From Dehalococcoidia bacterium (GTDB taxonomy: Bacteria > Chloroflexota > Dehalococcoidia > Dehalococcoidales > Fen-1064), in assembly GCA_030691775.1 (NCBI GenBank), contig JAUYDN010000099.1:1-35184 (forward strand): a stretch of 35,184 nucleotides of DNA, in the 5' to 3' direction. The position numbers were made by a program, and so were the translations under genes. This document shows, piece after piece, positions 6,943 through 26,546 of this stretch. The number at the start of each line of letters is the position of its first letter. The stretch's first letter is position 1. Under the pieces are notes generated by a model, which saw nothing but the letters and a program-made list of their open reading frames with translations, searched no databases and was not told the DNA's origin.

Positions 6943-6971
6943 ATAATAAACCTCAAAGTAGGAATTGTCAA
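6943..6971 (-). promoter_or_regulatory. Leftward sigma70 promoter for the regulator-int operon
   Basis: Minus strand reads TTGACA-N17-TATTAT. Confidence 0.6.
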
Positions 6972-7003
6972 GGGTGTGTTCTAGTTATTTGGAGGTAATT
7001 ACG

Positions 7004-7192
7004 ATGGATAGTAACAAAAGAGTTTTTTACCCGGAAGATATTGCGCAAGAAACCGGCTTAGGACTTAACCTGGTCTATCGGCTACTACGAGCTGGGGAAA
7101 TTTCCCATGTGAAAGCTGGCGATAGATATTTAGTAAGCCGAGCGAACTTTGAAAAATGGCTCTCTGGGGAAAGCCAGGCTCCGGCAAAATAG
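7004..7192 (+). CDS. xis: Excisionase-family (HTH_17) DNA-binding protein
   Basis: 62 aa: PEDIAQETGLGLNLVYRLLRAGEISHVKAGDRYLVSRANFEKWL; GGAGG RBS at 6991. Confidence 0.85.
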   Translation: MDSNKRVFYPEDIAQETGLGLNLVYRLLRAGEISHVKAGDRYLVSRANFEKWLSGESQAPAK

Positions 7193-7218
7193 CGGCGATA
7201 CCACAAGGTGGTGATGAT

Positions 7219-7377
7219 ATGAAAGATAAAACAGAGGAAAAACAAATCAAATTTGAAGACCAAGCAATTTTGTGTATTGAGTGTGGTCATACTTTCCTAT
7301 TCTCTGCGCCCCATGCCGGATGTACAGGAAGCTCACCCTGGTTAAAGGGGGGAGAGAATGAGACCACGAGACTTTGA
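7219..7377 (+). CDS. Small zinc-ribbon-like protein, possibly truncated
   Basis: FEDQAILCIECGHTFLFS resembles the first half of zf-trcl-type ribbons; the second CxxC is missing. Confidence 0.45.
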   Translation: MKDKTEEKQIKFEDQAILCIECGHTFLFSAPHAGCTGSSPWLKGGENETTRL

Positions 7378-9715: not shown

Positions 9716-9720
9716 AGTCT

Positions 9721-11112
9721 ATGTCGAAAGCTATGAATCAAATCCTGGAGCTTGGTCAAAATGCCGACAAGTTTCACCCGGCGGCTGTCAAGCAATACCG
9801 GGAGTTTCTTGATGAAATTTACGAGAAGGTACCGCTGGATACGATTACTGATGATGATGTGAAGGCATTTCTCTCTAAATCGGATTTTGAAGACTACCAG
9901 CATAGCATAAAAAGTCTATTTGAATGGCTTGCAAAATGCCTGCTGACCAATGATTCGTCCGCGCTCAAGAGTTATCCTCCTTTATTCCCCGTTTGGGGCG
10001 TATTTGGTTTTAAGAATTTATTGCTGAAAGTCTATCAAGGGAAACTGTACCGCCAAATGGTAGCAGATGCTCAAAATCGGGAGCATCTGGATTCGAGGCG
10101 GAGGGACCGAGAACGGGAAGAGGCAAGAATAGAACATCAGCAGTGGGTGAACCGGGTTAATAAAAGCCTGGATACTCTCAAGGCAAACCTGAGCAAGAAC
10201 ACCATGCCAGAATTCCAAACTCCGGTCTGGCTGAAATCTTACCATCCCTCAGTTTGGGTTAAACAGCTATCTGGTCCAACTAAAGACTGGTTCACTGCAA
10301 AGACCAGCATAATAGTTGCCGCTTACAAAGTGACACTGGAGAAAGCTCTTCGGGACCACGTATATGTTCAGTTCTTTTATTGGGCTTATCATCTCCCCGC
10401 TGTTCAGTATCAAGCGGTCAGCCCACCGCTGGTTTCGGTCAAAGGTCATCCGCTCAAAGTAAAGCCGGGGGTTCCCTGCCTTAAGTGGCTGCTGGCTACA
10501 TATATCATATCGGTCACCGAATTTTGGCAGGCAGCGGGGAATATTACCGATAGACGCTATGGCCATGATTTTCAAGTTCAATCTTCCCCTGAGAAATTGG
10601 GCACAGTTTATTCTGGACCTGCGTTTTGGAAATACCAGGACGCCTTCGTGACTCCCCTTAGTCTTCTCGCCCTGCTCGCTTGGGGAAAAGCCGAGCTGCC
10701 TGGTGTTGAGGTAGTAAATAGGGATGCACCCTGGACCGTATTCAGAGTCGCGGGATTCTCGACTGAAATTAGCTTACATGACGATTTTATTAAATTTGTC
10801 AGGGATATGACTAAAACAACTTCGCTGGATAAAGCTCTGCTGGACAGAAAGATGTGCGACAAGGAAACTGCCGGATTGGTTAAAGCAAAGCTAGAGAAGT
10901 TGAAGGAGCCGGAAGCTCATGCTGTAGTCCCCGGAACTACCAGTGAACCGGAGAGCACCGGAGACCCTTACATGGATGTGTTTTCCGCTCTCGTGGGGCT
11001 GGGCTATACCAAGGGTGAGGCGACAAAGGCGGCAAAGTTCGCCTGCGAGAAACATCCCCACGAAACGCTGGCAAATAAGATAAAAATTGCGTTGCAATAC
11101 CCGAGTAAATAA
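9721..11112 (+). CDS. Hypothetical protein with C-terminal RuvA domain III-like module
   Basis: C-terminus DVFSALVGLGYTKGEATKAA...LANKIKIALQ fits the RuvA_C pattern; ATG lies 5 nt after the primase stop. Confidence 0.7.
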   Translation: MSKAMNQILELGQNADKFHPAAVKQYREFLDEIYEKVPLDTITDDDVKAFLSKSDFEDYQHSIKSLFEWLAKCLLTNDSSALKSYPPLFPVWGVFGFKNLLLKVYQGKLYRQMVADAQNREHLDSRRRDREREEARIEHQQWVNRVNKSLDTLKANLSKNTMPEFQTPVWLKSYHPSVWVKQLSGPTKDWFTAKTSIIVAAYKVTLEKALRDHVYVQFFYWAYHLPAVQYQAVSPPLVSVKGHPLKVKPGVPCLKWLLATYIISVTEFWQAAGNITDRRYGHDFQVQSSPEKLGTVYSGPAFWKYQDAFVTPLSLLALLAWGKAELPGVEVVNRDAPWTVFRVAGFSTEISLHDDFIKFVRDMTKTTSLDKALLDRKMCDKETAGLVKAKLEKLKEPEAHAVVPGTTSEPESTGDPYMDVFSALVGLGYTKGEATKAAKFACEKHPHETLANKIKIALQYPSK

Positions 11113-11229
11113 TCTTGTGCCCTACATATCGCTATGGGCATACAGGACGGTAGTCCTGAGTGATATAGTCCGAGCCTGATTGATTGATAGCTAATAGATT
11201 GATTGATAGAGCTAAAGGGGAGAAAAACT

Positions 11230-11490
11230 ATGGCAAATGTTAAAACAGACTTGGTTCTAAAATGTCCCTGTGGGGCATCCAGTCCGGTGTTTGAAGGTAA
11301 GGGCTGGAATAGCCATTGCGTTGGTTGCGGACGGGTGAGCTTCTGGTCGAATCCTCTGCTTACCGAGCGGTTGAAATTTGGCGGTCCACTGTGTAAGCAC
11401 AAACCCGAATTAAAGCCCTGCAAGAATCCCAAGATACTGACATCTTTTTGTCTCGTTTGCAGGGTGCGGGTATTCCTGCCCGCTTCCTAG
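11230..11490 (+). CDS. Cys-rich Zn-finger protein
   Basis: CPC, CVGC, CKH...C and CLVC motifs; GGGGAG RBS. Confidence 0.65.
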   Translation: MANVKTDLVLKCPCGASSPVFEGKGWNSHCVGCGRVSFWSNPLLTERLKFGGPLCKHKPELKPCKNPKILTSFCLVCRVRVFLPAS

Positions 11491-11507
11491 AAGGGAGGTA
11501 ACGGACA

Positions 11508-11726
11508 ATGATAGTTCAGTGTCCTCACTGCGGCAAAGAAATAGCGGTGAATGGTTTAGGTCGTCCGAGGTTAGATATACCACTCAAAAACGTTTATGAG
11601 TCCCTTTCGAGGCATTGTAGCGTGATAGCAGCAGCCAATGAGCTAGGTTGTAGTCCAGCTTACATATTTGGCGCCCTGAAAGCCAATGGGATGAAATTAA
11701 AGGATGTGCTAAAGAGATGCGAGTAG
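11508..11726 (+). CDS. Zn-ribbon plus GRPR-HTH protein (Hin/Fis-like)
   Basis: CPHC, GRPR and SVIAAANELGCSPAYI; GGAGG RBS. Confidence 0.7.
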   Translation: MIVQCPHCGKEIAVNGLGRPRLDIPLKNVYESLSRHCSVIAAANELGCSPAYIFGALKANGMKLKDVLKRCE

Positions 11727-12274
11727 CAGCCTACCTTCGGGTATCAACTTCAGACCAGAGTGTTGATAATCAGTTACCTGCCATTGAGCAATTAGTTAAG
11801 GACAGGGGTTGGGAGCTGGCAGAAGTTTATGCGGAACATGAAAGCGCCTGGCGGTCCGGGCATCAGTATGAACTGAAGCACTTGCTGGATGATTTACGGA
11901 GCGGCAAACATAAATACGATTATGTGGTCGTTTGGAGCTTGGATAGATTAACCAGAGAAGGCATCGCCAAGATATTTGACCTGATGCATTCTTTTAAGAC
12001 GTGCGGTTGCCAGGTGATAAGCGTTAAAGAGCCGTGGACCGAGACGAGCGGTATTATGACTGACTTACTTTATGCTGTAAGCGCCTGGGTAGCTGAATTT
12101 GAAAGCAGCAGACGCTCGGAACGGATTCAAGCTGGTATCAAGCGAAAGACGGAAAGGGAGGGTTATAGACCAGGCCGTCAGAAAGGTGCTAAGGATAGGG
12201 GAAAGAGGGACCGCACCGGGTATCTCCTACGGTATGCCAAGAAGAAAAGAACACCGGTTGGAGCGAGCAAATAA
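11717..12274 (+). CDS. Small serine recombinase (resolvase/invertase family)
   Basis: YLRVST catalytic Ser, WSLDRLTR and AEFESSRRSERIQAG; short basic tail with no clear HTH. Confidence 0.92.
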   Translation: MRVAAYLRVSTSDQSVDNQLPAIEQLVKDRGWELAEVYAEHESAWRSGHQYELKHLLDDLRSGKHKYDYVVVWSLDRLTREGIAKIFDLMHSFKTCGCQVISVKEPWTETSGIMTDLLYAVSAWVAEFESSRRSERIQAGIKRKTEREGYRPGRQKGAKDRGKRDRTGYLLRYAKKKRTPVGASK

Positions 12275-12540
12275 ACTATCGGGAAAAATCTACTTCTGGA
12301 TTAGATAGACCGAGGTATTAAAAAATTGACTGTAAATATAGGGTAGCTATTTTGCGTAAGGAATTTGGCCTACAAGTTACACCAGTGCTGTGGCAGGGAA
12401 TTGTAGATACTCCAAAAAAGTTATGTTTTGTTGACGACTGGCAATAAGTGTATAATTACGATAATCAAAAAGACTCTTATTCGTGTTTTCGGGAATAGGC
12501 CCAGAGGCATGTCAGGCTAGACATAGACAGGAAGGAAGCC

Positions 12541-14214
12541 ATGATTGATATCCAGCCTCAGCTCCTGACCCTAAGCGGGTTGCTAAGCAAGCGTCTTTTC
12601 CGGATTCCTCAATATCAGCGCGCTTACAGTTGGCACTCCAGGCACAGACAAGATTTGTTTAACGACATCGTCAACACATGGCGTGCCGAGGGTGACCGCC
12701 AGCACTTCATGGCCACAGTAGTCGGACTCCGCCGTGAGAGGCGCATGATTGGAACCGACGAACACCAAGTGGTTGAAATTGTTGACGGTCAGCAACGGAT
12801 AACAACTGTCATTCTGCTTTTGAAAGCAATTGCGAAGATTGTGAATCGTTCGGACCAAGAGGGAGATAGAGTTGGCCGCGAACTCGATGAGACTCTAGTT
12901 AAGCCGGACAAAGCCTCGCTATTGCTCTTGCAGACGAACCACGATATCAGTAACTACTTTGCCGATTATCTGAGAACGGGAAATCACCCAAGCTCGGATT
13001 TGGCGACTACCCAATCAGACCGCGAACTTTTGCTCGCCATTGAGGAATGCGAGCAATTTCTAATGTCCTGTAGTAAAGAGGGCCTACCAGTTATCGACTT
13101 GGTTAGTCTGCTCAAGAACCGACTGACATTCGTGTTCCACGAAATTAGTGACGAAGCGCTGGTTTACACCGTTTTCGAAGTGTTGAACAGCCGTGGTCTT
13201 GAAGTCTCTTGGTTTGACCGTCTGAAGAGTATGCTAATGGCCATCGTGTTTGAAGCTAAGGAGAACAGTCCTGAGATTACAAGAGAAGTTCATACTCTTT
13301 GGAGTGACATCTACAGATGCGTCGGATTGCGAATAGGGATGAGTACAGAATCGCTTCGTTTCGCTGCATGTCTGCGTGAAAAAGCTGCTCCGAGCCGACT
13401 CCCCAGTGAGGAGGATGCTGCAAATATATTACGGACGCGGGCCAAGGCTAGTACTGCAGACGTAATCGAGATTACCAACTGGCTGAAAACGGTGACTGCA
13501 GCAATGGACAAAGTGCTCGGCGACCGCCGGACTAGAGGTGTTACGAGGATTGTGCAAGCACGCTTGGTCGCTGCTGCAATACATATTCGCCGCGATTTGA
13601 CCGATGGGGATAGGACAGAGGTGCTTCGCCGGTGGGAAAACGTTGCATTCCGCATGTACGGCATGTTTGGCTTGGACGCACGCTACGCCGTTGGAGACTA
13701 CATTCGGCTTGCTTGGAGGGTCGCGAATGAAAACCTGGACCGAGACGCAATTCTGAAGGAATTGTCGAGTATTGGAGCCCAGTACCCGATTACTGAAGCC
13801 TTAGAGAACCTCCGTAGCGCCGACCGCTATAACGGTTGGCAGGAAGAACTACGATATTTTCTTTTCAGGTATGAAGAGCATCTCACGAAGAAGGCAGGAC
13901 AGAATTTCAACAACGAACAATGGAATCATATCTGGATAGCTAACGCCTCGGATTCTATTGAACACATTCTCCCTCAGAGTTCAGGAAGTGATAAGGTGGA
14001 CCGCCTGGGAAATTTATTGTTGCTTCCCCCTAAGTTGAACTCCAAACTTCGTGCCCTCAGTCCGTCGAAGAAGTCCGAGGAATATCGCAAGACCGGCCTG
14101 TTGATAGCCGGGAAGGCAGCAGACCAAGTAGAGAGTTCTCGATGGGGACTAGGACAAATCAAAATCAGAGAGGACGAACTGTTGGACTGGGCAAAAACTG
14201 AATGGGCTGATTGA
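12541..14214 (+). CDS. DUF262-DUF1524 (GmrSD-like type IV restriction) nuclease
   Basis: DUF262 motifs IPQYQRAYSW, DGQQR and FEVLNSRG; HNH-like IEHILPQ...LGNLLLL...N (DUF1524). Confidence 0.9.
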   Translation: MIDIQPQLLTLSGLLSKRLFRIPQYQRAYSWHSRHRQDLFNDIVNTWRAEGDRQHFMATVVGLRRERRMIGTDEHQVVEIVDGQQRITTVILLLKAIAKIVNRSDQEGDRVGRELDETLVKPDKASLLLLQTNHDISNYFADYLRTGNHPSSDLATTQSDRELLLAIEECEQFLMSCSKEGLPVIDLVSLLKNRLTFVFHEISDEALVYTVFEVLNSRGLEVSWFDRLKSMLMAIVFEAKENSPEITREVHTLWSDIYRCVGLRIGMSTESLRFAACLREKAAPSRLPSEEDAANILRTRAKASTADVIEITNWLKTVTAAMDKVLGDRRTRGVTRIVQARLVAAAIHIRRDLTDGDRTEVLRRWENVAFRMYGMFGLDARYAVGDYIRLAWRVANENLDRDAILKELSSIGAQYPITEALENLRSADRYNGWQEELRYFLFRYEEHLTKKAGQNFNNEQWNHIWIANASDSIEHILPQSSGSDKVDRLGNLLLLPPKLNSKLRALSPSKKSEEYRKTGLLIAGKAADQVESSRWGLGQIKIREDELLDWAKTEWAD

Positions 14215-14271
14215 GCGGTTGCCCAGTCCCTCGGAGTGCAGTCATTTTCCCTTCGAAGCACAGGAGTCTTA

Positions 14272-17200
14272 ATGAATGTCGCCGACCAAGTCCAACAGCA
14301 GCTTCGGGCCCTCAATGGCTATGATGCCCTTCTTGCGCTGTTTGAAGCGCTGGGGTTCAGTTATGCCAATGAGCCGCACTCAACTGTGGATTGGACTGAG
14401 TCTGTAAAGCGAGATGTTTCCGACTTCCGTCTTGCCGCGAGACATGGTGCCTTTAATGTTTTCTACGTAGTTATTCCAGAATCGCACATGTTCAGCCGAG
14501 AACGGCAGATTACCTCGAAAATCCTGGCAACCGAGCCTCACAGTTTGATTGTCTTTACCGAGCCAGCACACCGGCTCTGGCATTTCGTACACGTCCGTTA
14601 CGATGAGCGCCTAGAACGGCGTAAACAGCTCCGTCGCTTTGTTGTTGACCTGGGAGAAGAACACACCGAGACCCGCCTTCGCACCACTGCCGAACGTCTT
14701 GCCCGCATTGCGATTCAACCCAGTGAGCAGGTTTCGGTACTGGAAATGCAAGAACGCTGTGATGAAGCCTTCCGCATCAGTGAAGTAACCAGGGGATTCC
14801 TGAAATCCTTTGTCAGCGTAGTCGCTGACCTGACCAACGCCCTGCTGAAGAATAATCCTGCCTTGCTGAAAACAGAGCCAGAAGCTTTATGCCAGGCGCA
14901 ACTTCTTATGGACCGGCTCGTCTTCCTCTACTTCGTACAGAAAAAGAACTGGCTGAATGGAGAGCCAGCCTATCTTTATTTACGTTTCCGTAAGTGCTAC
15001 GAGGCAGACCATGGGCAGGATACATTTTACCGGGAACGTTTGTTGCCCCTATTCCGTGCTCTATCTCATCGTGCCGCTCAGCGTCCTCACACAGATGACG
15101 GTAAAGATGAAGCGCTCCCGTTCTTAAACGGCGGCCTCTTTGACCTGCCGCTGTCCTATGGAACAGCCAATCCTCCCATCGATGAGCGACTGCGCCTCCC
15201 AAATCAGGCTCTCTACTCTGTTTTTGAGGATTTTCTGGAGCGTTACAATTTCACGACCACGGAAGACACGCCTCTCGATGTCGAAGTGGCAATTAACCCG
15301 GAGGTCATTGGCACGATTTTTGAGACGTTCGTGCTCACTTCGGAAAACGAGCCGGAAACTAATGCTCCTGACCGGCGCAAAGCCACGGGTAGTTATTACA
15401 CTCCTCGTTGCGTCGTCCATTTTATTTGCCAGGCAGTTTTCCGCCGCTATCTTGCCAGCCGGACGGGCATCGCCGAACGAGTCGTAAAGGAATTGGTGGA
15501 ATACCTGCCTGCCCAGCAGTTGTCCAGTGATGAGGAAAAGGAATTAGTCGGACTGATGTCCGTCAAGGATGCTGAAAAGTTACGCGAGGCAGCCGTTCAA
15601 ATACGTGCCTGCGACCCCGCCGTGGGTTCCGGTGCTTTCCCGGTGGGTTTGCTCCAGGAAGTGGTAAAGCTAGTCTCTTTACTGGATTTACGCATCAAAG
15701 GCAGGGACTACATTCAACACCTCAACTATGCCCACGACCTCAAAAAACGTGTTATTGAAGAATGCCTTTACGGCGTAGATATCCAGGAGCAGGCAGTGCA
15801 GATATGCGAATTGCGTCTCTGGCTATCGCTTGTGGTAGACTATGAGACTGACGAGAGGCTGCCTCTTATCGAGCGTATATCGCAGATAGAACCGCTGCCA
15901 AACCTGACGTTCCGCATACGAGTAGGTGATTCGCTCATTGACCAAATCTTTGGTCGTAATTGGGATGTCAAAAATCAGCGTCATGATGACCTTACCAGCG
16001 AATTGACTGCCAGGAAACGTTCTTACTACGAATCACAAACGCCGGAAGGCAAACGTGATTTGGAGCGGCAAATTATTGTACTGCAATTACGGCTGCTGGA
16101 ACGGTTGCTTGAGGCAGAGCGGCTGGAAACCGGCGCGGACCTGCCTATGCTCGACGAAATGGTGAGCGCCCAACAACGATTAAGAGTCACTTATATTAAG
16201 ATGCGCCTGCAGGAAATTGATGACTTGCTGAAGCACTGCCGTACAGCGATGGGGCAGGCAAATCAGCCGGTTGCAGAAGCCTGGGAGCACACCCGCCGCT
16301 TTGATGCTATCCGCAAGCAGCTTGGTGTCTCTTTCATCTGGGAACTGGACTTTGCCGAGGCATTTGACCCTGCACGCAGCGGCAATGGTGATAACAAGAA
16401 AGGCTTTGATGTCATTGTAGGAAATCCGCCTTTTGTTACCGCCCGCAACCCGGAAAAACGCGAACAGTACCGGAGGCGCTGGCCAACGAGCTGTTACAAG
16501 AAATACCACCTGCTGGCGCCCTTTACCGAACTCGCGCTTAGTAAGTTGCTGCGGAAGGGTGGGCAACTCGGTTACATTGTATCAAACGCCTTTGCCACGC
16601 GTGATTTTGGAAAACCTTTAGTGGAGCAGGTTTTCCAGCAGATGGAACTGCAGAACGTGGTTGATTGCTCCGGGCTGATGTTCCCAGGACATGGCACGCC
16701 CACCTGTATTCTTCTCGGGTACACCGTGGCAAATAGACCGAAACTGACTACGTATTTGTGCGGTACTAAACCAGGCATGGGCCAACTGCATGAGGAAGCG
16801 GAAGAAACCGAGTTGTGGGCTGAGATTGAAGACGGTTGGGAGAACCCCACTTTCAAAGGCAAACGGATGGAGGTCGCTGAATGGACTGAGGACGTAGCTC
16901 GAGCACATCCGTGGTCATTGAACGCGGCAGGTACGAATCTGAAGGACTCCATGGAAGAAGGTTCTTCAATGCTTGACGGATATTCTCCCTACTCGGTTAG
17001 TTACTCCACAGTTTCAGGAAAAGACGCTGTGTTCGTTTTACCGTTTGATTCTAGCCGAAGGTTCCTTTTGAAAGATTTAGCCAGATTATTTGTCCTGGGA
17101 GAAGAGCTGCGTGATTGGAGTGTTACTCCTTCTCAATTGGCTATCCACCCATTTAGCGATGATGGACTTTTACTTGAACCGGAACTGTTGTCTGCCGGAG

Positions 17201-18573
17201 CAAGCAAGTATTTCGCTAGATTTCGGGGATGTCTGGAAAACCGTCAGGGAATGCTGTTTCAACAAGGCATGAAGAAGGGAGAACCCTGGTACCGTTATGA
17301 ATACTACGACCAGAAGAGGGCGGGTAGTGAAGTTCGCATTATTTGGGCTTTCATTGCGACTCACATTTCGGCATGTGACGGGGTACTCGGTCTGCAGACG
17401 AATCGTTCAATAAATGACTTCATCCCTGGCGCAATTGGGGACCCGAAGTTATTTCTCGCCCTACTCAACTCTTCCTCTGCACTCTTCTACCTTAGGCAAA
17501 TCTGTTTCTGTAAGAGGGAAAGTAGTAACCCTGAAACTGATAACTACTACGAATTCGCGGGAGGCAAAGTAGAACAACTGTCGGTACCCCGCCTACTCCT
17601 GGAAGACAATCACGTGAAAGAACGTACCAGTTTGCTGGCGGGAAAATGCTCCGTACTTGGAGCACTCGTCCCGGGTCTCCATCCGCGTAAGCTCTTCGAG
17701 ATGCCGCGCGAAGCCTATACAGACTGGTACGGCGGCATCCGAGGTTACCAGTTGCCTCATCCCGCTCTGAACCTCAAGTGGAGAACGGCAAGCGAGCTGC
17801 TTAGGGCATGGCGTTGGGCAATTGATGAAATGCATACCATCCGCAGACAGATGATTGCCTTACAAGAAGAAATGGACTGGCTGATGTACGGCGCCTATCA
17901 GATACTGCCCCTAAACCACCCTGCGGTAAACCTGCATGGCCCTCCGCAACCCCAAGCCATCGACCGTATAGAACGTCCCTATCGTCTGGTGCAGAACAAC
18001 CAATCCTCTCCACCTGACTGGAGCGTGGAGCAAAGAAGACTTTGGCAGGCGCGCCTCGATGCCATTGCGGAGGAAGAATTTATTGGACAGGTAGAAAATC
18101 CGGCTTACAAACGGCGTTGGGAAGAACCCTTCGGTGATAAAGATTTCCTCACGGCGTATGAATGGTGGCTCAGGGAAAAGGCTGAGTGGTGGCTGGAAAA
18201 CAAACACAAAGGTGGCCCCATCAGTCTGGATGTGTGGGCAGCCGAACTATGGCAGGACAGACGCGTGAGAGCTGCATACGAAGCTGCCTTGGAGATTGGG
18301 CAAGCAATAGGAGACAAAGACTACCAGCGTGAAGCTGAAAATGGCAATCAAGCCCGGCACCTGAAGCGCGTTATCGAAGAAGAGACAGTGCCGGACCGGC
18401 GAGATGCATTTAAGAAAAAACACGAGAAACTGCGCAGCATTAGTGCCGAGAAACATTTGCCTAATGGCGTGCCCAGGGAAAGGTTCCGCTCGGTTACAGA
18501 TAAACCTGGCTATTACGTATGGGCGGGGAAGGACATCTGGGGCGGCGTTCAAGGAGATAAATGGGATGACTGA
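14272..18573 (+). CDS. Large N6-adenine DNA methyltransferase (Eco57I/type IIG-like N-half, BREX-2 PglX-like C-half)
   Basis: GSYYTP, DPAVGSGAF (motif I), YGVDI and VGNPPF (motif IV); also PGHGTPT, MIALQEEMDW and YKRRW. CAGGAG RBS before ATG 14272. Confidence 0.88.
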   Translation: MNVADQVQQQLRALNGYDALLALFEALGFSYANEPHSTVDWTESVKRDVSDFRLAARHGAFNVFYVVIPESHMFSRERQITSKILATEPHSLIVFTEPAHRLWHFVHVRYDERLERRKQLRRFVVDLGEEHTETRLRTTAERLARIAIQPSEQVSVLEMQERCDEAFRISEVTRGFLKSFVSVVADLTNALLKNNPALLKTEPEALCQAQLLMDRLVFLYFVQKKNWLNGEPAYLYLRFRKCYEADHGQDTFYRERLLPLFRALSHRAAQRPHTDDGKDEALPFLNGGLFDLPLSYGTANPPIDERLRLPNQALYSVFEDFLERYNFTTTEDTPLDVEVAINPEVIGTIFETFVLTSENEPETNAPDRRKATGSYYTPRCVVHFICQAVFRRYLASRTGIAERVVKELVEYLPAQQLSSDEEKELVGLMSVKDAEKLREAAVQIRACDPAVGSGAFPVGLLQEVVKLVSLLDLRIKGRDYIQHLNYAHDLKKRVIEECLYGVDIQEQAVQICELRLWLSLVVDYETDERLPLIERISQIEPLPNLTFRIRVGDSLIDQIFGRNWDVKNQRHDDLTSELTARKRSYYESQTPEGKRDLERQIIVLQLRLLERLLEAERLETGADLPMLDEMVSAQQRLRVTYIKMRLQEIDDLLKHCRTAMGQANQPVAEAWEHTRRFDAIRKQLGVSFIWELDFAEAFDPARSGNGDNKKGFDVIVGNPPFVTARNPEKREQYRRRWPTSCYKKYHLLAPFTELALSKLLRKGGQLGYIVSNAFATRDFGKPLVEQVFQQMELQNVVDCSGLMFPGHGTPTCILLGYTVANRPKLTTYLCGTKPGMGQLHEEAEETELWAEIEDGWENPTFKGKRMEVAEWTEDVARAHPWSLNAAGTNLKDSMEEGSSMLDGYSPYSVSYSTVSGKDAVFVLPFDSSRRFLLKDLARLFVLGEELRDWSVTPSQLAIHPFSDDGLLLEPELLSAGASKYFARFRGCLENRQGMLFQQGMKKGEPWYRYEYYDQKRAGSEVRIIWAFIATHISACDGVLGLQTNRSINDFIPGAIGDPKLFLALLNSSSALFYLRQICFCKRESSNPETDNYYEFAGGKVEQLSVPRLLLEDNHVKERTSLLAGKCSVLGALVPGLHPRKLFEMPREAYTDWYGGIRGYQLPHPALNLKWRTASELLRAWRWAIDEMHTIRRQMIALQEEMDWLMYGAYQILPLNHPAVNLHGPPQPQAIDRIERPYRLVQNNQSSPPDWSVEQRRLWQARLDAIAEEEFIGQVENPAYKRRWEEPFGDKDFLTAYEWWLREKAEWWLENKHKGGPISLDVWAAELWQDRRVRAAYEAALEIGQAIGDKDYQREAENGNQARHLKRVIEEETVPDRRDAFKKKHEKLRSISAEKHLPNGVPRERFRSVTDKPGYYVWAGKDIWGGVQGDKWDD

Positions 18574-21500
18574 CCGGCTGATAGATAACCAGGACTTACG
18601 CCTTTCTGACGCTCTCAGTGAGCTCATTCCACACGCTACGGTGGCGCGATTCGCGGTGGGCTATTTCTTCATTTCCGGGTTCAACGCCCTCGCGGACAAA
18701 ATAGGTAAACTCGACAAGCTGCAATTGCTTATTGGCACCACCAGTAGCAAAGAGACCATTGAGCAACTGGCGCTCGGTTACCGCCGCCGCGAGCTAATTG
18801 AAGAGAAACTGAGAGAACAGCGGTTTGTAGCCGTGGAACGGGCAATCGGGGAGACTGTAACCAGTATCCGTCAAGAAATCAGCGAGCTGCAACCCGGCGA
18901 GCGCGAAGAAAAGACAATCGCCACGCTCGCTGAGCTTATTACGTCTGGCAAAATCGAAGTCAAGGTCTACACACGTGGGACATTGCACGCCAAAGCCTAC
19001 ATTTTCGACTATCGGCATCCCCAGCCCAATTCTAAGGGCATCGGTATTGTCGGCTCCAGCAATCTCACTGAGCCTGGCCTGACCGTAAACAGTGAGCTCA
19101 ATGTTCAGGTAGACGACGACGCAAATGTTATGACTGGTGAAGGGCTCCACCGCGACTTGTGCACGTGGTTTGATAGGCTCTGGGCAGATGCAAAGCCATT
19201 CTCAACAGAGCTGATGAATGAATTAAAGGAAAGCTGGGCCCTTACCGTCGCCCGCCCGTACGATGTCTACCTGAAGATGCTCTTCGAACTGGTGCGGAGC
19301 AGACTCGAAGGTGATGGTTCGAAACTGATTTTGCCGGAAGAGATTCCGCTCGCGGCATATCAAAAAGTGGCGGTACAGCAAGCAATCCGCATGGTCGACC
19401 AGTACGGAGGGGCCTTCGTGGCAGATGTGGTGGGTGTAGGGAAGACTTTTGTTGGCTCGGCCGTTGCCCGCTTCTATTATGAATCAGAAAAACGCCGGCC
19501 GCTCATCATTTGTCCCAACGCACTCGTGGAGATGTGGGAAAAGTACAGCAAGATGTGGTTCCTCAATGCGGAAATCGTTTCCATGAGTATGCTGCGGGAA
19601 CAGTCTGCGGAAGGCGCAGACAGGAAAATCTCCGGGCTGGACGAAGAACTGGTGCAGCACTGCGGCTTCGTGCTTATTGATGAAAGTCACAACTTCCGGT
19701 ATTCAGATAGCCAGCGCTATCGGGTACTCTCGGACTTCCTGATGGAGGGCACGGACCGGAAGGTTCTATTGCTCACTGCCACTCCCTACAACAAATCGGC
19801 GCTGGACATTTATAACCAGCTAAAATTGTTCCACCACAACGAGACGACGATGATACCGGTCGAGCCCCGCAATCTGAAGCAGTATTTCAAACGAGTGGAG
19901 GATGGAGAACGGCGGCTCTCCGACCTATTGGTCCACATGCTCGTAAGACGGACCCGTTGGCAATTACTCCGCTGGTACGGGTACGACGAGAACACTGATA
20001 AAGCGGTAGATACTCACAACTTCCAACCTTACCTCAACAGCGAGAAACGTGCCTACCTCCGCTTCTATGATGCGGCGGGCACACTATCTAAGAAATTCTT
20101 CCCCTTACGGGAATTGGAGACAATCGATTACTGCATTGACGACGTATACGGTAATCTCTTCGGCAAATCGCTCTACGACCAGATTGTGGCTTTGCTGCAC
20201 AGGCGTAAAACCAGTATCAGTGAGGAAACACTCGAGGACGAGCCGGCGCCGGCGTCCGACCCCAGAGCGCTTACCTACGCTCGGTATGGGCTATGGAATT
20301 ACGTCAAACCGGAGTGGAAAAACGACGCTCGTTATAAGAGACTGGTGAGAGCCGGGAAGAACCTGCGCGGACTTATCCGCACTAGCCTTTTTAAGCGTCT
20401 CGAAAGCTCCGTGGAGGCTTTTCGCAAAAGCATCGGCCGGCAGGTAACTGTGCATGAGAACTTCTTGGCGGCACTCAGTAACGGGAAAATCGCTGCCGGT
20501 GAAAGGGCCGCCGACCTATTAGAAATTGACCGGGATGATACCGAAGAAGCGTTACAGTCCTTTCTCAATGCGCTTGAAGAATTCGAAGAGCAACGTGGCT
20601 TTCATTATGACATCGACGCCTTCGAGAAGGAGCACCTGCGCGCTGACGTGGAGCACGACCTAGACACTTTCCGTGACATCAATGAAATGGTGAGCACTGC
20701 AAAGATTCCCGCTTCAAACGACGACAAGCTGAAGACCCTTATGAAACAGCTGCTAAAATTAAGACAGAAAGGGAAAGTCATTCTCTTCACTCAATATGAG
20801 GATACAGCCAAGTACCTGATGGACAATCTGCCAACTGCCCTACGCTCGCATGCCGCTTTGGTTACCGGCGAAACCGAGAACAAGATGAGTGTTGTCAGGC
20901 GTTTCGCACCAGAAGCCAATGAATACGCTCCTGGGCGGGGTCAGGAACTGCATCTATTGATTGCTACGGATGTATTATCCGAAGGTCTAAACCTACAAGA
21001 CTGCCACCAGGTCGTCAACTATGACCTGCATTGGAATCCCGTCCGGTTAATTCAACGGTTTGGACGCATCGACCGCGTCGGCTCTAACCATGACAGGATT
21101 TTCGCCTTCAATTTCTTGCCAGAAAAGGCCGCAGAGCATGAGCTGGGGTTAAGCGAGAAGCTACGGGCAAGAATCAGTGAGTTCAATGAGATATTGGGGC
21201 TTGATTCACAAGTACTTGATAACAAGGAGAAGGTAAATACTGAGGCAGTCTATGCAGTCTACGAGGAAAAAGGCGGCAGACACTTGGGCGCTTTTGAAGC
21301 AGGAGAAACTGACCTGGTCGGAGTCACGCTGGCGGAAGCTGAGGAGTTCTTCCGGGATTTACGGGAGAAAGCGCCTGCAGAATATGACCGCATTAAGAAC
21401 TTGCGAGATGGCATCCGCACAGCCCGTTCGACGGGCGAAAAAAAAGTGCTTGTATTGTGCCGTGCCGGTGACTTCCTGCATCTGTATGTGCGTAATCTCG

Positions 21501-21973
21501 ATGACCAGTCTGTAGACATTGACACTCTTGACGCACTTAATCTTTTGAAATGCGGGCCAGAGGAGTTACCGGCGGAGCTTCCTAGAAACCTAAATGGCAT
21601 TCTAACAACGGTGAAGCTGAAACTCACAAATGATGTCGACGAGCTATGGAAACAAAGCCGCACCAAGAGTCCGCTTAGCCCAGGGCAAAAATACGTTCGC
21701 GACGGATTGGAACGATTGCGTGTGCAATTACCTCACTTGGATGCCGACGGGGGACTTAGCCGTCTTGCCGAAGCCACTGTGAAAACACGTCAGCGGCGTT
21801 TCCAGCGGGCATGCGATAGATTGCGCCGGGATAAAGTAGCTGGAGAAGCACTACTAAGGAGAACCCGACAGCTGTACTATGACTGTGCCCTTCACATTGA
21901 AGTCGCCGCCGTCAAGGAAGAAGAGATTGAAACCAGGATACCGAGAATTGTTGCGGTGGCGGCGCTGGTGTAG
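18566..21973 (+). CDS. PLD nuclease-SNF2/SF2 helicase fusion
   Basis: PLD motifs LHAKAYIFD (HKD) and GSSNLT; helicase motifs ADVVGVGKT, DESH, TATP, SEGLNLQ and QRFGRIDR. Start overlaps the MTase stop (ATGACTGA). Confidence 0.92.
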   Translation: MTDRLIDNQDLRLSDALSELIPHATVARFAVGYFFISGFNALADKIGKLDKLQLLIGTTSSKETIEQLALGYRRRELIEEKLREQRFVAVERAIGETVTSIRQEISELQPGEREEKTIATLAELITSGKIEVKVYTRGTLHAKAYIFDYRHPQPNSKGIGIVGSSNLTEPGLTVNSELNVQVDDDANVMTGEGLHRDLCTWFDRLWADAKPFSTELMNELKESWALTVARPYDVYLKMLFELVRSRLEGDGSKLILPEEIPLAAYQKVAVQQAIRMVDQYGGAFVADVVGVGKTFVGSAVARFYYESEKRRPLIICPNALVEMWEKYSKMWFLNAEIVSMSMLREQSAEGADRKISGLDEELVQHCGFVLIDESHNFRYSDSQRYRVLSDFLMEGTDRKVLLLTATPYNKSALDIYNQLKLFHHNETTMIPVEPRNLKQYFKRVEDGERRLSDLLVHMLVRRTRWQLLRWYGYDENTDKAVDTHNFQPYLNSEKRAYLRFYDAAGTLSKKFFPLRELETIDYCIDDVYGNLFGKSLYDQIVALLHRRKTSISEETLEDEPAPASDPRALTYARYGLWNYVKPEWKNDARYKRLVRAGKNLRGLIRTSLFKRLESSVEAFRKSIGRQVTVHENFLAALSNGKIAAGERAADLLEIDRDDTEEALQSFLNALEEFEEQRGFHYDIDAFEKEHLRADVEHDLDTFRDINEMVSTAKIPASNDDKLKTLMKQLLKLRQKGKVILFTQYEDTAKYLMDNLPTALRSHAALVTGETENKMSVVRRFAPEANEYAPGRGQELHLLIATDVLSEGLNLQDCHQVVNYDLHWNPVRLIQRFGRIDRVGSNHDRIFAFNFLPEKAAEHELGLSEKLRARISEFNEILGLDSQVLDNKEKVNTEAVYAVYEEKGGRHLGAFEAGETDLVGVTLAEAEEFFRDLREKAPAEYDRIKNLRDGIRTARSTGEKKVLVLCRAGDFLHLYVRNLDDQSVDIDTLDALNLLKCGPEELPAELPRNLNGILTTVKLKLTNDVDELWKQSRTKSPLSPGQKYVRDGLERLRVQLPHLDADGGLSRLAEATVKTRQRRFQRACDRLRRDKVAGEALLRRTRQLYYDCALHIEVAAVKEEEIETRIPRIVAVAALV

Positions 21974-22083
21974 TCAATCGCAACAAATATAAATACACGG
22001 GTTCTCAATGTTCAAGTCGTAATTATCGGCGTTTGCCGAAGTATAGTCACCATTCGAGACTGCACATTTCGTCATGTTGTGTT

Positions 22084-22103
22084 ATGAACCCCTGTCCGTG
22101 CGG
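22084..22103 (+). other. comM/YifB-like 'MNPCPCG' fragment, candidate attachment-site scar
   Basis: ATGAACCCCTGTCCGTGCGG in non-coding DNA 110 bp after the defence cassette. Confidence 0.5.
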
Positions 22104-22196
22104 AATGTAGTTACGACAATCGAGAGGGAGGTGGTTTTGAAATAGGGTTGCGGTCACCGGTGCCCCCGAGATGCAGCAAGGTAAATGAGGTTAGTG

Positions 22197-22225
22197 CTGA
22201 CAAGAAACCAGCCCATGTGTATAAT
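22197..22225 (+). promoter_or_regulatory. Promoter for the small membrane gene
   Basis: CTGACA-N17-TATAAT. Confidence 0.5.
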
Positions 22226-22511
22226 TGGAACACAGAGAACTACGCCATGTCTGAAACTACTTCTGCTCAAATGGAAAAGCGTCAGCGTGTCATGGGGTGG
22301 GTGGCTGTAGCACTATCCACGCTGGCCGCCTCAGTCCTGGGCATCGTCGCCGGTGAAGAGGTCATCATGCGCGACTGGCTTGGCGCCCTTTCGCACGCGG
22401 CTCAAATGTTGGTCGTAATAGTAGCTACCCTGGTCGCCCTGCGCTGGCCGCAATTTGGTGGCAGCCTCCTTGTGCTGGCCGGACTGGGGTTTATGTTACA
22501 GCTTGCACTAG

Positions 22512-22636
22512 TACTACTACGTTATGTTGCATTCGACGACATATGCCAACATATATTATTGCTTCGATGTCTCGGTCATGAAAGGTAAAGAGGGAGAGCA
22601 GTTCCAAGCTGACTTTGGGTACTTAACGCAGTAGTA
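22512..22636. mobile_element. 125-bp MITE flanked by CTAG
   Basis: TIRs TACTACTACGTTA / TAACGCAGTAGTA (12/13 match); CTAG at 22508-22511 and 22637-22640. Confidence 0.75.
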
Positions 22637-22640
22637 CTAG

Positions 22641-23960
22641 CAGGGTGCTGAAAAACGGGTGTTGGTGGGCATTTCTTCAGCCCTGATGCCTCTTTGTTGA
22701 TAATTCCTCACTGCTTTTTAGTTTTCGAAGTCGCTGGAAGGGGCTAAAACTGGTGTTTCGAGCCCGGTTTCAGTTTATTAGGCATAGTTCACCCCCAGCG
22801 GGCATGGCCAAGGCAAGTTTGGCCATCCTCACCAGGTTGTAGGCCACAGCGGTGAGCTCCCACCAGAGCCGGTTGCGCACCAACCCCTTATACCTGAGCT
22901 TGCGACCTCCGCCGACTGTCTTCACCCAGCCAAATATCTCCTCGACACGCTTGCGTATCCGCTGACTGGCTTGATAACCCGTATGGCGGGTGGTGCGTCC
23001 ATCCACCTTCGAAGTCTGGCGGCGGGCTACATGGGGCGTGATGTTCATTCTACGGCACATGGTGACGAAATCCTGTGTGTCGTAGCCCTTGTCTGCCCCG
23101 ACGGTAATCCGGCGTGACACCGGCACTCCCTCCAGCATGTCCAGCGCCGCGTCACGTTCCGCCGTGCCGGTAGCCTGAGTAAAGGTGACATCTACTACCA
23201 TGCCATTGCGGTTCTCCATCAGGACGTGGCCGGCAAAACATAGCTTGGCTTCCTTACCACGTCCCTTCCTGGCCAGCCACGCCTCGGGGTCCGTAGTCGA
23301 TTGGTGAGTATCATTCGTCCGCTGTTCCCCATGGAAGTCTACGCTGGGATTCTTCTCCCCGGTAGTGGGTGTGTCATTGCCCGCATCCTTGGGACGAAAA
23401 CTCTTCAAGGATGCCCACGCCTCCAGTAACGTGCCATCTACGGTGAAGTGGTCCTCTGATAGCAGCCTGCGCCGCCGCGCCTCTTCCAGTACCACTACCA
23501 GGAACTCCCTCGCCACGTCATGCTCTAGCAGTCTCTCCTTGTTCTTGGAGAAGGTCGAGGCATCAAACGCCGGGTCTATTATGTTGAGGTCCAGAAACCA
23601 CTTGAACAGCAGGTCGTACTGTAGTCGTTCACAGAACTGGCGCTCACTGCGCACCGAGTACAGGGCAATTAGTAGACATGCTTTGAGCAGGTGCTCGGGT
23701 GGTATTGAAGGCCGACCTGTCTCGGCATACATCCGGCTGAACGTAGGAGACAGCTCCCGCAGAGCGTTATCCACAATCGGTTTGATTTGACGTATAGGGT
23801 GGTCTTCAGGCACTAACTGGTCGGCCGTCACCAGACTGAGCATCGTCACCTGCGCATCTGCTTTGCCACGCATCTAAGCCTCCGATTATCTCGTTGGCTC
23901 TAATCTACCACAACCCGCAGGCTAAGTCAGCTACCCCCAAGAGACTTTTTCAGCACCCTG
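22641..23960 (-). mobile_element. IS5-family insertion sequence (1320 bp)
   Basis: Perfect 15-bp TIRs CAGGGTGCTGAAAAA / TTTTTCAGCACCCTG; CTAG target duplication at 22637 and 23961. Confidence 0.93.
22770..23873 (-). CDS. IS5-family DDE transposase
   Basis: GRPSIPPE and SERQ; DDE triad in VDGT, ADKGYD and RKRVEEIFGW. Confidence 0.93.
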   Translation of the reverse strand: MRGKADAQVTMLSLVTADQLVPEDHPIRQIKPIVDNALRELSPTFSRMYAETGRPSIPPEHLLKACLLIALYSVRSERQFCERLQYDLLFKWFLDLNIIDPAFDASTFSKNKERLLEHDVAREFLVVVLEEARRRRLLSEDHFTVDGTLLEAWASLKSFRPKDAGNDTPTTGEKNPSVDFHGEQRTNDTHQSTTDPEAWLARKGRGKEAKLCFAGHVLMENRNGMVVDVTFTQATGTAERDAALDMLEGVPVSRRITVGADKGYDTQDFVTMCRRMNITPHVARRQTSKVDGRTTRHTGYQASQRIRKRVEEIFGWVKTVGGGRKLRYKGLVRNRLWWELTAVAYNLVRMAKLALAMPAGGELCLIN

Positions 23961-25026: not shown

Positions 25027-25569
25027 ATGATTAGTTTTGCCCTTGCCTATGTGAGAGGACTAATGGTTAAGTTTAAGCCACTGAAATGGAACGATTATCT
25101 GATATGTCTCCTACACGACAAGGATAATATTAGGAGAACAATAGGTTTGATTCCATATTTTTGGGATGATGATATACATTTCACTCTTGCTTTAAGACCA
25201 ATAAGAAATGTCGAACACCATGATGATATATGGAGTATAAAGTGGCGTTTGTTAGATTTGGATGGTAATCGTCTAAAAGAGGGTAAAGATACTGTCAATA
25301 TTACAAATGCTAAGTGGATGCGTAGATATTTTGGTGGTCCTTGGACATCAGGGAAAAGAAGGGCTATTGTGCTTGGTAATTTAAGTCCGAATAGAAATTA
25401 TATATTGAAAGTCGTTTTAACTAACGGAATAGGCAATAGCGTTGAAGAAGCGATGGCGACATTCAGTACAAAAGATAGAGGAGATTTTTATTCCCAGATA
25501 TTTCTAATCCTATTTAGTATAGTGGCAGCATTGATATTCTCTGCTCTAGCGAAATGGTGTGGGTTATGA
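25027..25569 (+). CDS. AT-rich hypothetical protein with C-terminal TM anchor, passenger of the IS6-like unit
   Basis: TGGTATAAT promoter and GGGAGG RBS upstream; hydrophobic C-terminus; stop overlaps the transposase ATG (ATGA). Confidence 0.6.
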   Translation: MISFALAYVRGLMVKFKPLKWNDYLICLLHDKDNIRRTIGLIPYFWDDDIHFTLALRPIRNVEHHDDIWSIKWRLLDLDGNRLKEGKDTVNITNAKWMRRYFGGPWTSGKRRAIVLGNLSPNRNYILKVVLTNGIGNSVEEAMATFSTKDRGDFYSQIFLILFSIVAALIFSALAKWCGL

Positions 25570-26546
25570 GTTGTAAATATTGCTTATCTGAGAACATAAT
25601 CAAATACGGCAAGTACAAAGATACCCAATACTACTACTGTAACGACTGCAAACGTAAGTTCTCTAATCCCGATGCTATCCCCAAGATGCAGTACTCCACG
25701 TCCAAAGTAGCCGATGCTATCTCAATGTACTTTGAGGGTATGAGTCTCAAAGAGATACGGCGCAATTTCATACAACAACATAACGACTACATCTCGGACG
25801 TAACAGTCCTGAACTGGGTAAACCGATTTACGGACTTGGCTGTGACCGAGTCAAAAAAGCATTATCCCAATGTTGGTTCAGTTTGGATTGCCGATGAGAC
25901 TGTTTTGGACATTGACGGTAAAAATATCTGGCTGTGGGACATCATAGATTCTGATACCAGATTCCTGATAGCCACTCATATGTCATACACTCGCACTTCC
26001 AAAGATGCTGAACAGCTAATGAAGTTGGCTTACGAGCGAACGGGTAAAATGCCACGAATCATTTACACAGATAAGCTCAGAGCCTACTTGGAAGGGATTG
26101 AGCGGATATTCGGAGCAGACACAACTCACAAGCAAGGTGCTCCGTTTGATGTGGAAAACAATACCAACTATATTGAGCGGTTTCACGGTACAATCAAGTC
26201 CCGCACAAAGGTGATGCGTGGGTTGCACACTGAGGGGTCTGCTAGAAAGTACCTTGACGGCTGGCTGGTTCACTACAACTTTTTCCGTCCACATATGAGT
26301 CTCAATGACCAGACTCCAGCGAGTGTAGCTGGTATCAAGTTCCCTCTCCGAAATTGGAAGGATGTTTGTGAGCAACCTTACGAAGTAACAGCCAGAATAC
26401 CAATTAAGGCTAGTGTGCCGATACCAGAGACTACGTTACCGAGTGTGGGCATCAAGACTGTCACCAAGCGTAAGAAACTTGTTAAGCGCGGGTTTCACAG
26501 TCGGAAAAAGATAGAAACCAGCCTGTCTCAAATGAGGGTAAAATGA
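25566..26546 (+). CDS. IS6/IS240-family DDE transposase with N-terminal Zn ribbon
   Basis: CKYC...CNDC, WIADET, IYTDK, NYIERFHGTIKSR and YNFFRPH. Confidence 0.85.
   Translation: MSCKYCLSENIIKYGKYKDTQYYYCNDCKRKFSNPDAIPKMQYSTSKVADAISMYFEGMSLKEIRRNFIQQHNDYISDVTVLNWVNRFTDLAVTESKKHYPNVGSVWIADETVLDIDGKNIWLWDIIDSDTRFLIATHMSYTRTSKDAEQLMKLAYERTGKMPRIIYTDKLRAYLEGIERIFGADTTHKQGAPFDVENNTNYIERFHGTIKSRTKVMRGLHTEGSARKYLDGWLVHYNFFRPHMSLNDQTPASVAGIKFPLRNWKDVCEQPYEVTARIPIKASVPIPETTLPSVGIKTVTKRKKLVKRGFHSRKKIETSLSQMRVK

Follow-up and report, generated by a model that had tools for sequence, protein, structure and literature searches.

Do three adjacent, co-oriented genes encode one defence system, or a smaller system and a neighbour? 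The question is raised by a stretch of DNA from a Dehalococcoidia bacterium (NCBI GenBank assembly GCA_030691775.1, contig JAUYDN010000099.1, positions 1–35,184 of the forward strand; this whole stretch of 35,184 nucleotides is hereafter referred to as the window). At 12541–21973 it encodes, in succession, a GmrSD-family nuclease, a DNA methyltransferase (MTase) and a protein that joins a phospholipase D (PLD) nuclease domain to an SNF2-type motor (PLD-SNF2). An earlier note on this DNA had read the three genes as a compact cassette, in which a PglX-type recognition module of BREX type 2 was grafted onto a helicase–nuclease restriction system and backed by a modification-dependent nuclease. 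On balance, we find it probable that the MTase and PLD-SNF2 make up a two-gene, ATP-dependent restriction-modification (RM)-like pair, comparable to a split Type ISP or MANTIS-like system, and that the GmrSD gene is unlinked to it.

Gene organization of the locus

The three genes were delineated from open reading frame (ORF) calls and translations:

12541–14214, plus strand: GmrSD-family nuclease, 557 residues
14272–18573, plus strand: MTase, 1433 residues
18566–21973, plus strand: PLD-SNF2, 1135 residues
14184–14229, plus strand: hairpin across the GmrSD stop codon (inverted repeat I2; 20-nt arms, 80% complementary), most of it placed inside the 57-bp gap between the GmrSD and MTase genes

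This arrangement agrees with the earlier description: the genes share one strand, a gap of 57 bp (14215–14271) separates GmrSD from the MTase, and the MTase and PLD-SNF2 genes overlap by 8 bp (18566–18573, ATGACTGA). Every peptide motif that had been quoted for the MTase was found in its translation. The MTase ORF opens at a GTG at 14236, and the ATG at 14272 is preceded by AGGAG at 14262–14266. A ribosome-binding site, AAGGAG at 18551–18556, lies upstream of the PLD-SNF2 start at 18566. A scan for promoters and terminators gave no excess over shuffled expectation. The Pfam domain assignments of all three genes are over the curated cut-offs.

Co-occurrence of the MTase and PLD-SNF2

Two sets of related loci were surveyed. 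The genome set comprises 80 loci retrieved via motifs of the MTase N-terminal half (N-half); all have the N-half, and most combine it with a different, shorter C-terminal half (C-half). The metagenome set comprises 80 loci retrieved via C-half motifs; the family was studied in metagenome contigs because the C-terminal 524 residues of the MTase had no match (E ≤ 1e-10) in any of 400 other genomes of its own phylum. A partner was counted within 10 kb on the same strand, and a locus was considered to have room when its contig left 4.5 kb or more upstream and 2.5 kb or more downstream.

PLD-SNF2 lies beside the MTase in 66 of the 80 genome loci and in all 45 of those with room, which upholds the earlier assertion that an Eco57I/type IIG-like N-half is the form that partners PLD-SNF2; the 14 loci that lack it are all cut short on one side. 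It is also present in 37 of 46 metagenome loci that have the N-half together with a DUF7008-type C-half (13/13 with room). The neighbourhood survey of homologues that had been proposed as a check thus finds the helicase beside every N-half relative with room, genome and metagenome sets combined (58/58). By contrast, no PLD-SNF2 was found at 15 loci that have a DUF7008-type C-half but only a weak N-half match (proteins of about 1460–1505 residues; 0/3 with room). Because all 58 N-half relatives with room have the partner and none of the 15 C-half-only loci does, PLD-SNF2 tracks the N-terminal module of the MTase, not its C-terminal reader module.

The module is compact as well as recurrent. PLD and SNF2 domains lie within one ORF in 85 of 91 loci, and in the window itself a PFLNGGLF-type N-half MTase and a PLD::SNF2 gene of this one-ORF kind stand side by side on one strand. 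The same MTase/PLD-SNF2 overlap recurs in the five closest-relative loci with a full MTase (four of them distinct). Gene order flips at least eight times on a tree of the MTase N-part. Relatives with the partner downstream share MTase residues 1–130 more closely than those with the partner upstream (median identity 24% versus 15%), and their PLD domains are 37–45% identical to that of the partner here, versus 22–31% if upstream.

A second pair is present in the same 2.26-Mb genome, on the minus strand of contig C224 at about 14.4–19.6 kb (loci L082, L176 and L177). Its PLD-SNF2 is a 1083-residue open frame, 27–34% identical to that of the window and directly upstream of the MTase; the MTase is of the N-half type, a 1064-residue open frame that scores 179 bits on the MT_N query and is without a DUF7008-type C-half. 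The genome thus holds two paralogous MTase and PLD-SNF2 systems, presumably with different specificities. Elsewhere, at 3015–7568 of a contig from a Brasilonema metagenome-assembled genome (L019), a 1517-residue ORF joins the MTase N-half (query residues 1–556) to the C-terminal half of SNF2 (residues 354–885 of the motor query), and looks like the product of a gene-fusing deletion rather than a functional fusion.

Domain anatomy of the MTase

The MTase is divided into five regions:

14272–14661, plus strand: residues 1–130, alpha/beta domain with a PD-(D/E)xK-like fold lacking a conserved (D/E)xK, the proposed partner adaptor (AlphaFold2 model)
14782–15432, plus strand: residues ~171–387, helical bundle of the MmeI/PglX/HsdM N-terminal type (VIA-align)
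15559–16716, plus strand: residues ~430–815, gamma-class N6-adenine MTase core (Pfam Eco57I and N6_Mtase)
16720–17601, plus strand: residues 817–1110, target-recognition domain (TRD), collinear with BREX-2 PglX (NF033451, BLASTP and model)
17602–18573, plus strand: residues 1111–1433, helical C-terminal region including DUF7008 (residues 1245–1374; Pfam and NF033451)

The N-terminal 440 residues were modelled with AlphaFold2 from a 29-row alignment (predicted local distance difference test score (pLDDT) 80.4). In this model residues 1–126 form a confident alpha/beta domain, with block mean pLDDT of 86–96 over residues 1–110. VIA-align matched residues 14–169 to the BpuSI nuclease domain (Z 5.2) and to a putative restriction endonuclease (9y1l; Z 4.8), both of them middling values, and the helical bundle to MmeI (5hr4; Z 10.2), BREX-1 PglX (8c45; Z 9.3) and HsdM (2okc; Z 8.8). 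A Foldseek search of the pdb database with the N-terminal model returned no match at E ≤ 0.001. Across 24 relatives that share the N-domain there is no conserved (D/E)xK on strand 3; what is conserved is E77/R78, WHF103–105 and a run of arginines. We infer that the domain is nuclease-derived and probably no longer cuts.

The catalytic core is intact. Motif I (DPAVGSGAF, 448–456) precedes motif IV (NPPF, 718–721), the order that defines a gamma-class N6-adenine MTase, and D448, P449, G452–G454 and N718–F721 are invariant in 36 sequences. The core matches CamA by sequence (E 7.8e-8). In Foldseek, the C-half, modelled from 39 rows (pLDDT 89.9), retrieved CamA (7e-11), M.BseCI (3e-9), PglX of BREX-1 (2.6e-4), MmeI (2.9e-4) and BpuSI (about 3e-4), the best fold matches being the DNA-recognition parts of CamA and M.BseCI. 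Such a fold prediction is what one would expect of a TRD with a short asymmetric target site.

The PLD-SNF2 partner

The partner has two parts:

18566–19315, plus strand: residues 1–250, single-HKD PLD nuclease domain (PLDc_2)
19316–21973, plus strand: residues 251–1135, SNF2-type superfamily 2 (SF2) motor and a C-terminal region of ~290 residues (SNF2-rel_dom, Helicase_C and ResIII)

Pfam scores are 40.6 bits for PLDc_2, 41.1 for SNF2-rel_dom and 66.9 for Helicase_C, with ResIII also matched. The signature of the PLD superfamily, HxK(x)4D followed by GSxN, is present as H141-A-K143-AYIF-D148 and G163-S-S-N166; all 32 sequences compared share H141, K143, G163-S-S-N166, E177 and N179. The motor carries the SNF2-type SF2 ATPase motifs GVGKT (290–294), DESH (372–375) and QRFGRIDR (830–837), of which Walker A residues G290/G292/K293, DExH residues D372/E373/H375 and motif VI (Q830–R837) are invariant among the partners. 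Sequence comparison links the PLD region to SauUSI (7clg; E 2.4e-7), and the best PADLOC model for the whole protein is C3a139, 'HKD+Snf2' (228 bits). Pfam recognizes no modified-base reader domain in it. Each chain has one HKD, as in BfiI, SauUSI and MtsD.

Two contigs from among the closest relatives, identical over the region (L093, 4598–9320; L094, 6381–11103), carry an MTase decayed to its last ~398 residues, the DUF7008 part, followed by an intact, overlapping PLD-SNF2 of 1139 residues. PLD-SNF2 thus seems to be tolerated without the methylase, and these two loci are in keeping with a nuclease that does no harm once its specificity subunit is lost.

Relation of the MTase to BREX-2 PglX

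Pfam places Eco57I (97.2 bits), N6_Mtase and DUF7008 (48.7 bits) in the MTase. The earlier note had proposed that its two halves be profiled separately; we scanned it in four pieces against PADLOC and NCBIfam models. For residues 1–433 the only matches are to PADLOC REase_MTase_IIG models, the best at 85 bits, and PglX models are not among them. Residues 710–1110 score 222 bits on NF033451, the BREX-2 PglX equivalog, with the next model far weaker, and residues 1111–1433 score 52 bits on the same model. The whole MTase reaches 288.4 bits, covering profile positions 356–769 and 890–1009 only, and thus falls short of an equivalog defined by a full-length match over 400 bits.

For direct comparison we used the PglX-2 of Polaromonas plasmid pPNAP01, from a complete BREX-2 locus with pglW, pglX, pglZ and brxD. 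In BLASTP, MTase residues 712–1081 align with its residues 372–763 (29% identity, E 9e-43) and residues 1190–1286 with 847–962 (33% identity); alignment is weak around motif I and absent over the first 440 residues. On the PADLOC PglX model the Polaromonas protein scores 1780 bits from end to end (1–1187 of 1189), versus a partial 314 bits for the MTase. From motif IV almost as far as the C-terminus the two proteins are therefore collinear, as the earlier note had it, at 29–33% identity and with GHGTPT, LLNSS, QEE(M/L)DW and YKRRW in common and DUF7008 present in the MTase, whereas the N-terminal 440 residues are unrelated. By these comparisons the MTase appears to be a mosaic at the domain level, its C-half remotely collinear with BREX-2 PglX from motif IV, yet not itself a PglX-2.

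How old is this mosaic? A homologue search of 5.8 billion proteins gave 1828 matches at E ≤ 1e-3 among 8000 candidates scored. Of the 120 best, 118 have the Eco57I plus DUF7008 architecture; they are about 1330–1600 residues long and cover 82–100% of the query save for two fragments, the nearest being 67% identical to the MTase. A 36-sequence alignment is conserved from end to end. Two quick, unrooted FastTree trees were computed. In that of the N-part (residues 205–815; 121 rows, after 6 that lacked the NPPx motif or had a short N-part were dropped), all 47 DUF7008-type rows and the truncated ORF L022 fall on one side of a branch with 99% support, and the DUF7008 label needs 2 changes versus 37.5 in shuffles. 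In that of the C-module (residues 705–1420; 66 rows), PglX-2 is set apart by a long branch with full support, solitary enzymes form one clade, and the partnered forms make up three lineages, one of them the five-row clade of the MTase itself. The C-module of the MTase is 37–39% identical to solitary enzymes versus 29% to PglX-2, and so appears nearer to these ~1480-residue enzymes than to PglX-2.

The trees suggest that the N-half and the DUF7008-type C-half were joined once or very few times, long ago, and have since diverged to ~35% identity; unrooted trees do not give the direction of module transfer. The idea of a novel or recent PglX graft does not survive these results: nearly all of the best homologues share the architecture, the DUF7008-type rows group together, and the C-module lies closer to solitary enzymes.

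The solitary Eco57I plus DUF7008 family was seen at five loci (L104, L107, L108, L165 and L101), with MTase ORFs of 1459–1505 residues that stand alone amid unrelated, mostly housekeeping, genes. In two that were scanned with PADLOC, the C-half scores up to 460 bits on the PglX-2 model, better than the MTase here, and the N-part matches DrmMI (277 bits) and other 'IIG' models. These enzymes are a third context of the DUF7008-type reader module.

The GmrSD neighbour

The first gene is a GmrSD-family member, with GmrSD_N at 99.3 bits (cut-off 33.2) for the DUF262 N-domain, GmrSD_C at 58.8 bits (cut-off 23) for the DUF1524 His-Me finger C-domain, the motifs DGQQR and IEHILP in its translation, and a match to the DUF262 protein 9jfl in the PDB (E 9e-11). 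It occurs once in its own genome, and the surrounding DNA examined at the second pair on C224 holds no GmrSD-like sequence. With tblastn (E ≤ 1e-5), GmrSD was found at none of the 80 genome loci and none of the 80 metagenome loci. The closest relatives (53–68% identity in the C-terminal region) keep the overlapping MTase and PLD-SNF2 genes next to differing neighbours, an integrase at L097 and a gene with an NYN domain at L092. Because GmrSD is absent from all 160 related loci, it is best regarded as an independent type IV neighbour, predicted to be modification-dependent, and not as a third subunit; as a unit, the three-gene cassette of the earlier note falls away.

Comparison with known systems

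Nine proteins of the window were scanned with PADLOC and 24 with Pfam. Among these, the BREX-2 core (PglZ, BrxC/PglY, and PglW with BrxD/BrxHI) was not found, and a search of the 92%-complete genome for PglZ (PF08665) was negative; the real BREX-2 loci examined carry pglW, pglX, pglZ and brxD. DUF499 and DUF3780 have no Pfam or PADLOC match in the scanned ORFs, nor has DUF499 (PF04465) in the genome. DrmA and DrmB are not in the window, the single genomic DUF1998 match being unlinked on contig C42. The earlier observation that core genes of BREX and DISARM are missing is therefore correct for the window, and for PglZ and DUF499 it extends to the genome. BREX type 2 was accordingly rejected as an assignment, given the missed NF033451 cut-off and the absence of PglZ, PglW and PglY from the scans.

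MANTIS (also Gao_RL, Hma-like or DUF499-centred BREX-related type 2) consists of MtsA, MtsB, MtsC and MtsD (preprint 10.64898/2026.09.23.753747; PMC12839542). MtsD is described there as a dimeric, SauUSI-like PLD-SF2 effector acting downstream of MTase-directed recognition; in the preprint, MtsC directs both methylation and restriction. The AAA+ DUF499 protein MtsA and the DUF3780 protein MtsB were not found here, MtsC is alpha-class whereas the MTase is gamma-class with an MmeI/PglX-like layout, and PLD-SNF2 matches the PADLOC HmaA model over residues 578–841 only. On the first two of these grounds, MANTIS/Hma/BREX-related type 2 was rejected. Type ISP enzymes (LlaGI, LlaBIII) act at an asymmetric site in an ATP-dependent manner (PMC3874165). 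They share with the pair a nuclease, an SF2 motor, a gamma-MTase and a TRD, in the same order as loci with the partner upstream, but combine them in one chain with an Mrr/PD-QxK nuclease; here there are two genes and two chains, with a PLD nuclease and an SNF2-type motor, and Type ISP was rejected.

Type IIG/IIL enzymes (MmeI, BpuSI, DrdV) have a nuclease-like N-domain, helical bundle, gamma-MTase and TRD in the same order as the MTase. Membership of that type calls for an active PD-(D/E)xK in the same chain; the N-domain here is nuclease-like at Z ~5 and has no conserved (D/E)xK on strand 3, although E77/R78 and WHF are conserved, and the MTase is always paired with a helicase–nuclease and has the extra DUF7008 region. 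Class 1 DISARM (DrmD SNF2, DrmMI, DrmA, DrmB and DrmC PLD) likewise offers an SNF2 protein (DrmD model, 132.6 bits), an N6A MTase (DrmMI, 66 bits) and a PLD protein, but here PLD is fused to SNF2, the scores are far under the NCBIfam cut-offs (150 versus 610), and with no adjacent DrmA or DrmB this class was rejected too. The BREX and BrxU island of plasmid pEFER is reported to set a methylation-based system beside a GmrSD-family type IV enzyme, with complementary cover of unmodified and modified phage DNA (PMC8565348); it differs in that the first layer here is the MTase/PLD-SNF2 pair, not BREX, and in that this adjacency occurs at 0 of 160 related loci.

The system had also been put forward as undescribed. 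No publication that names or tests an MTase and PLD-SNF2 pair was found in a literature search of main texts, nor one that mentions DUF7008; PLD-SNF2/HKD-helicase type names were found in the BREX-diversity paper only, and the 'modularity' preprint (10.64898/2025.12.08.692795) held nothing relevant. The pairing itself is, however, mentioned in passing in two papers: Milman et al. 2023 tabulate 'Type II RM' genes with an adjacent PLD and SNF helicase gene (PMC9881135), and a table of Shah et al. 2018 has a cluster named 'HKD+Snf2' in the vicinity of type III CRISPR loci (PMC6546367). The latter cluster is the best PADLOC model for PLD-SNF2. What is new here is the subfamily with a PglX-2-type (DUF7008) reader and the N-terminus that tracks the partner.

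A model for the pair and its alternatives

The reading of the MTase and PLD-SNF2 as an ATP-dependent RM-like pair starts from observations: the gene structure, the domain families, the intact catalytic motifs and a co-occurrence that follows the N-terminal module. We propose that the gamma-class MTase, with its own TRD, would read a short asymmetric site and methylate host DNA, and that it would also recognize unmarked sites. The steps beyond this recognition are modelled on Type ISP and MANTIS. The nuclease-like N-domain, its catalytic motif lost, would act with the helical bundle as an adaptor that recruits or licenses a PLD-SNF2 dimer, since a single HKD domain must dimerize to form one active site. 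Driven by ATP, the SNF2 motor would then translocate from, or allow communication between, unmethylated MTase-bound sites, and the PLD-SNF2 dimer would cut the DNA. Hemimethylation, recruitment via the N-terminus, translocation and cleavage are all inferred. The TRD and DUF7008 reader module would share an old common ancestry with BREX-2 PglX and the solitary enzymes, and GmrSD, acquired alongside, would cover phages whose modified DNA escapes the pair. A complex prediction of MTase residues 1–440 with PLD-SNF2 residues 850–1135 scored 0.00 and bears neither way. As a more tentative extension, the MTase–TRD–DUF7008 core may be an exchangeable reader-writer cassette whose N-terminal adaptor picks the effector (PglW/Y/Z in BREX-2, none with the DrmMI-like N-part of the solitary enzymes, PLD-SNF2 with the dead nuclease and helical parts), with the inactivated nuclease domain as a docking or activation switch.

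Several points weigh against the two-gene RM-like reading. Cleavage by MtsD, the closest characterized PLD-SF2 effector, has not been reconstituted in vitro according to the preprint (10.64898/2026.09.23.753747). The locus counts include near-duplicate contigs, with identical MTase sets and near-identical tree groups, such that not all are independent. A search for single-chain PLD-SNF2-MTase fusions yielded one unrelated match among 3954 longer candidates, which argues weakly that such fusions do not occur. The N-domain fold matches are middling (Z ~5), and the conserved E77/R78 and WHF103–105 may leave room for a non-canonical active site.

In one alternative, the MTase would be a complete Type IIG/IIL enzyme by itself, with DNA cutting done by its N-terminal nuclease, and PLD-SNF2 an independent, travelling single-gene defence of the SauUSI-like type IV or Hna-like kind. 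The REase_MTase_IIG assignment of the N-half, the restriction-endonuclease-like fold of the N-domain and the sequence match of the PLD domain to SauUSI speak for it. We nevertheless consider it improbable: the partner is present at all 58 N-half loci with room, tightly coupled or overlapping in both gene orders, it follows the N-module and not the MTase core or TRD, the N-domain lacks a conserved (D/E)xK, and PLD-SNF2 has no modified-base reader that Pfam can detect. Just as improbable, in our estimate, is a non-degradative exclusion of the BREX kind, in which the PglX-2-like MTase would mark self, the SNF2 motor would block replication of unmarked DNA and the PLD domain would be regulatory rather than a nuclease. 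The collinear C-half is in its favour, as is the still unclear restriction mechanism of BREX (PMC12839542); but the HKD/GSSN catalytic residues are invariant in all 32 partners, PglZ, BrxC/PglY and PglW were not found, and the C-module resembles the solitary enzymes more closely than it does PglX-2.

We give a slightly lower chance still to a true three-gene system, with GmrSD wired to the MTase and helicase through, for example, common regulation or the sensing of their own methyl mark. Its attractions are that the genes are co-oriented and 57 bp apart in one island, and that BREX next to the GmrSD enzyme BrxU, as reported in PMC8565348, is a precedent. Against it stand the absence of GmrSD beside all 160 related MTases, including close relatives with differing neighbours, the hairpin over the GmrSD stop codon, and the single GmrSD in a genome whose second pair lies in DNA where nothing GmrSD-like was seen.

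Island context

The MTase and PLD-SNF2 pair is carried on a mobile island, for which the following features were identified:

4789–4864, plus strand: tRNA-Lys (CTT), the likely integration site of the island (ARAGORN)
4947–6122, minus strand: tyrosine integrase (Pfam Phage_integrase, 85 bits, and SAM_3; phrog_1 integrase, E 1.1e-75)
11717–12274, plus strand: small serine recombinase of the resolvase/invertase type, upstream of GmrSD (Pfam Resolvase, 104.6 bits; phrog_125 DNA invertase)
22770–23873, minus strand: insertion sequence (IS) transposase at or near the right side of the island (Pfam DUF772 and DDE_Tnp_1)
25554–26546, plus strand: IS transposase of the IS240/rve type (Pfam)

The integrase gene begins 83 bp beyond the tRNA gene. 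A second copy of the tRNA-Lys 3' end (attR) was not found within the window, and a direct-repeat search gave nothing useful; the right border of the island is undefined for this reason. To the right of the pair, a TetR gene is flanked by two different IS transposases and a low-GC stretch (0.39 at 25–26 kb), and these transposases and the low GC probably blur that border. An invertase or shufflon acting on the MTase gene was considered and rejected for this locus, as 11000–22700 holds no long inverted repeats and only three short pairs.

Two further island genes lie to the left. A 785-residue protein of unknown family (7358–9715) weakly matches a phage primase/helicase (phrog_239, E 1.5e-5). 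Its gene contains two copies, 1.8 kb apart, of a 16–24-nt element with the palindrome TTGACACCCCCCTGTCAA (7656–7679 and 9452–9485), which may serve the island as an origin or as a binding site. A 485-residue protein (9655–11112) resembles the C-terminal domain of RuvA over its last ~45 residues (Pfam, E 3.3e-5) and is otherwise without a family match in Pfam, PADLOC, NCBIfam or PHROGs.

Implications

Viewed as a hybrid RM/BREX three-gene cassette, the locus does not stand out: its architecture is an old one that occurs widely, and GmrSD travels as a passenger. Its interest lies in the pair. Pipelines label such MTases 'Type IIG' or 'PglX', and so hide a very common, putative two-gene, ATP-dependent restriction system. 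The choice of effector follows the N-terminal module of the MTase, while the DNA-reading module is common to BREX-2 PglX, which suggests a hypothesis of modular assembly for methylation-based defences that domain swaps could test. The pair also provides a two-protein setting in which to study a PglX-2-type reader. Should the reader-writer cassette reading prove true, the pair would be a minimal, tractable model of BREX-2-type recognition turned into restriction.

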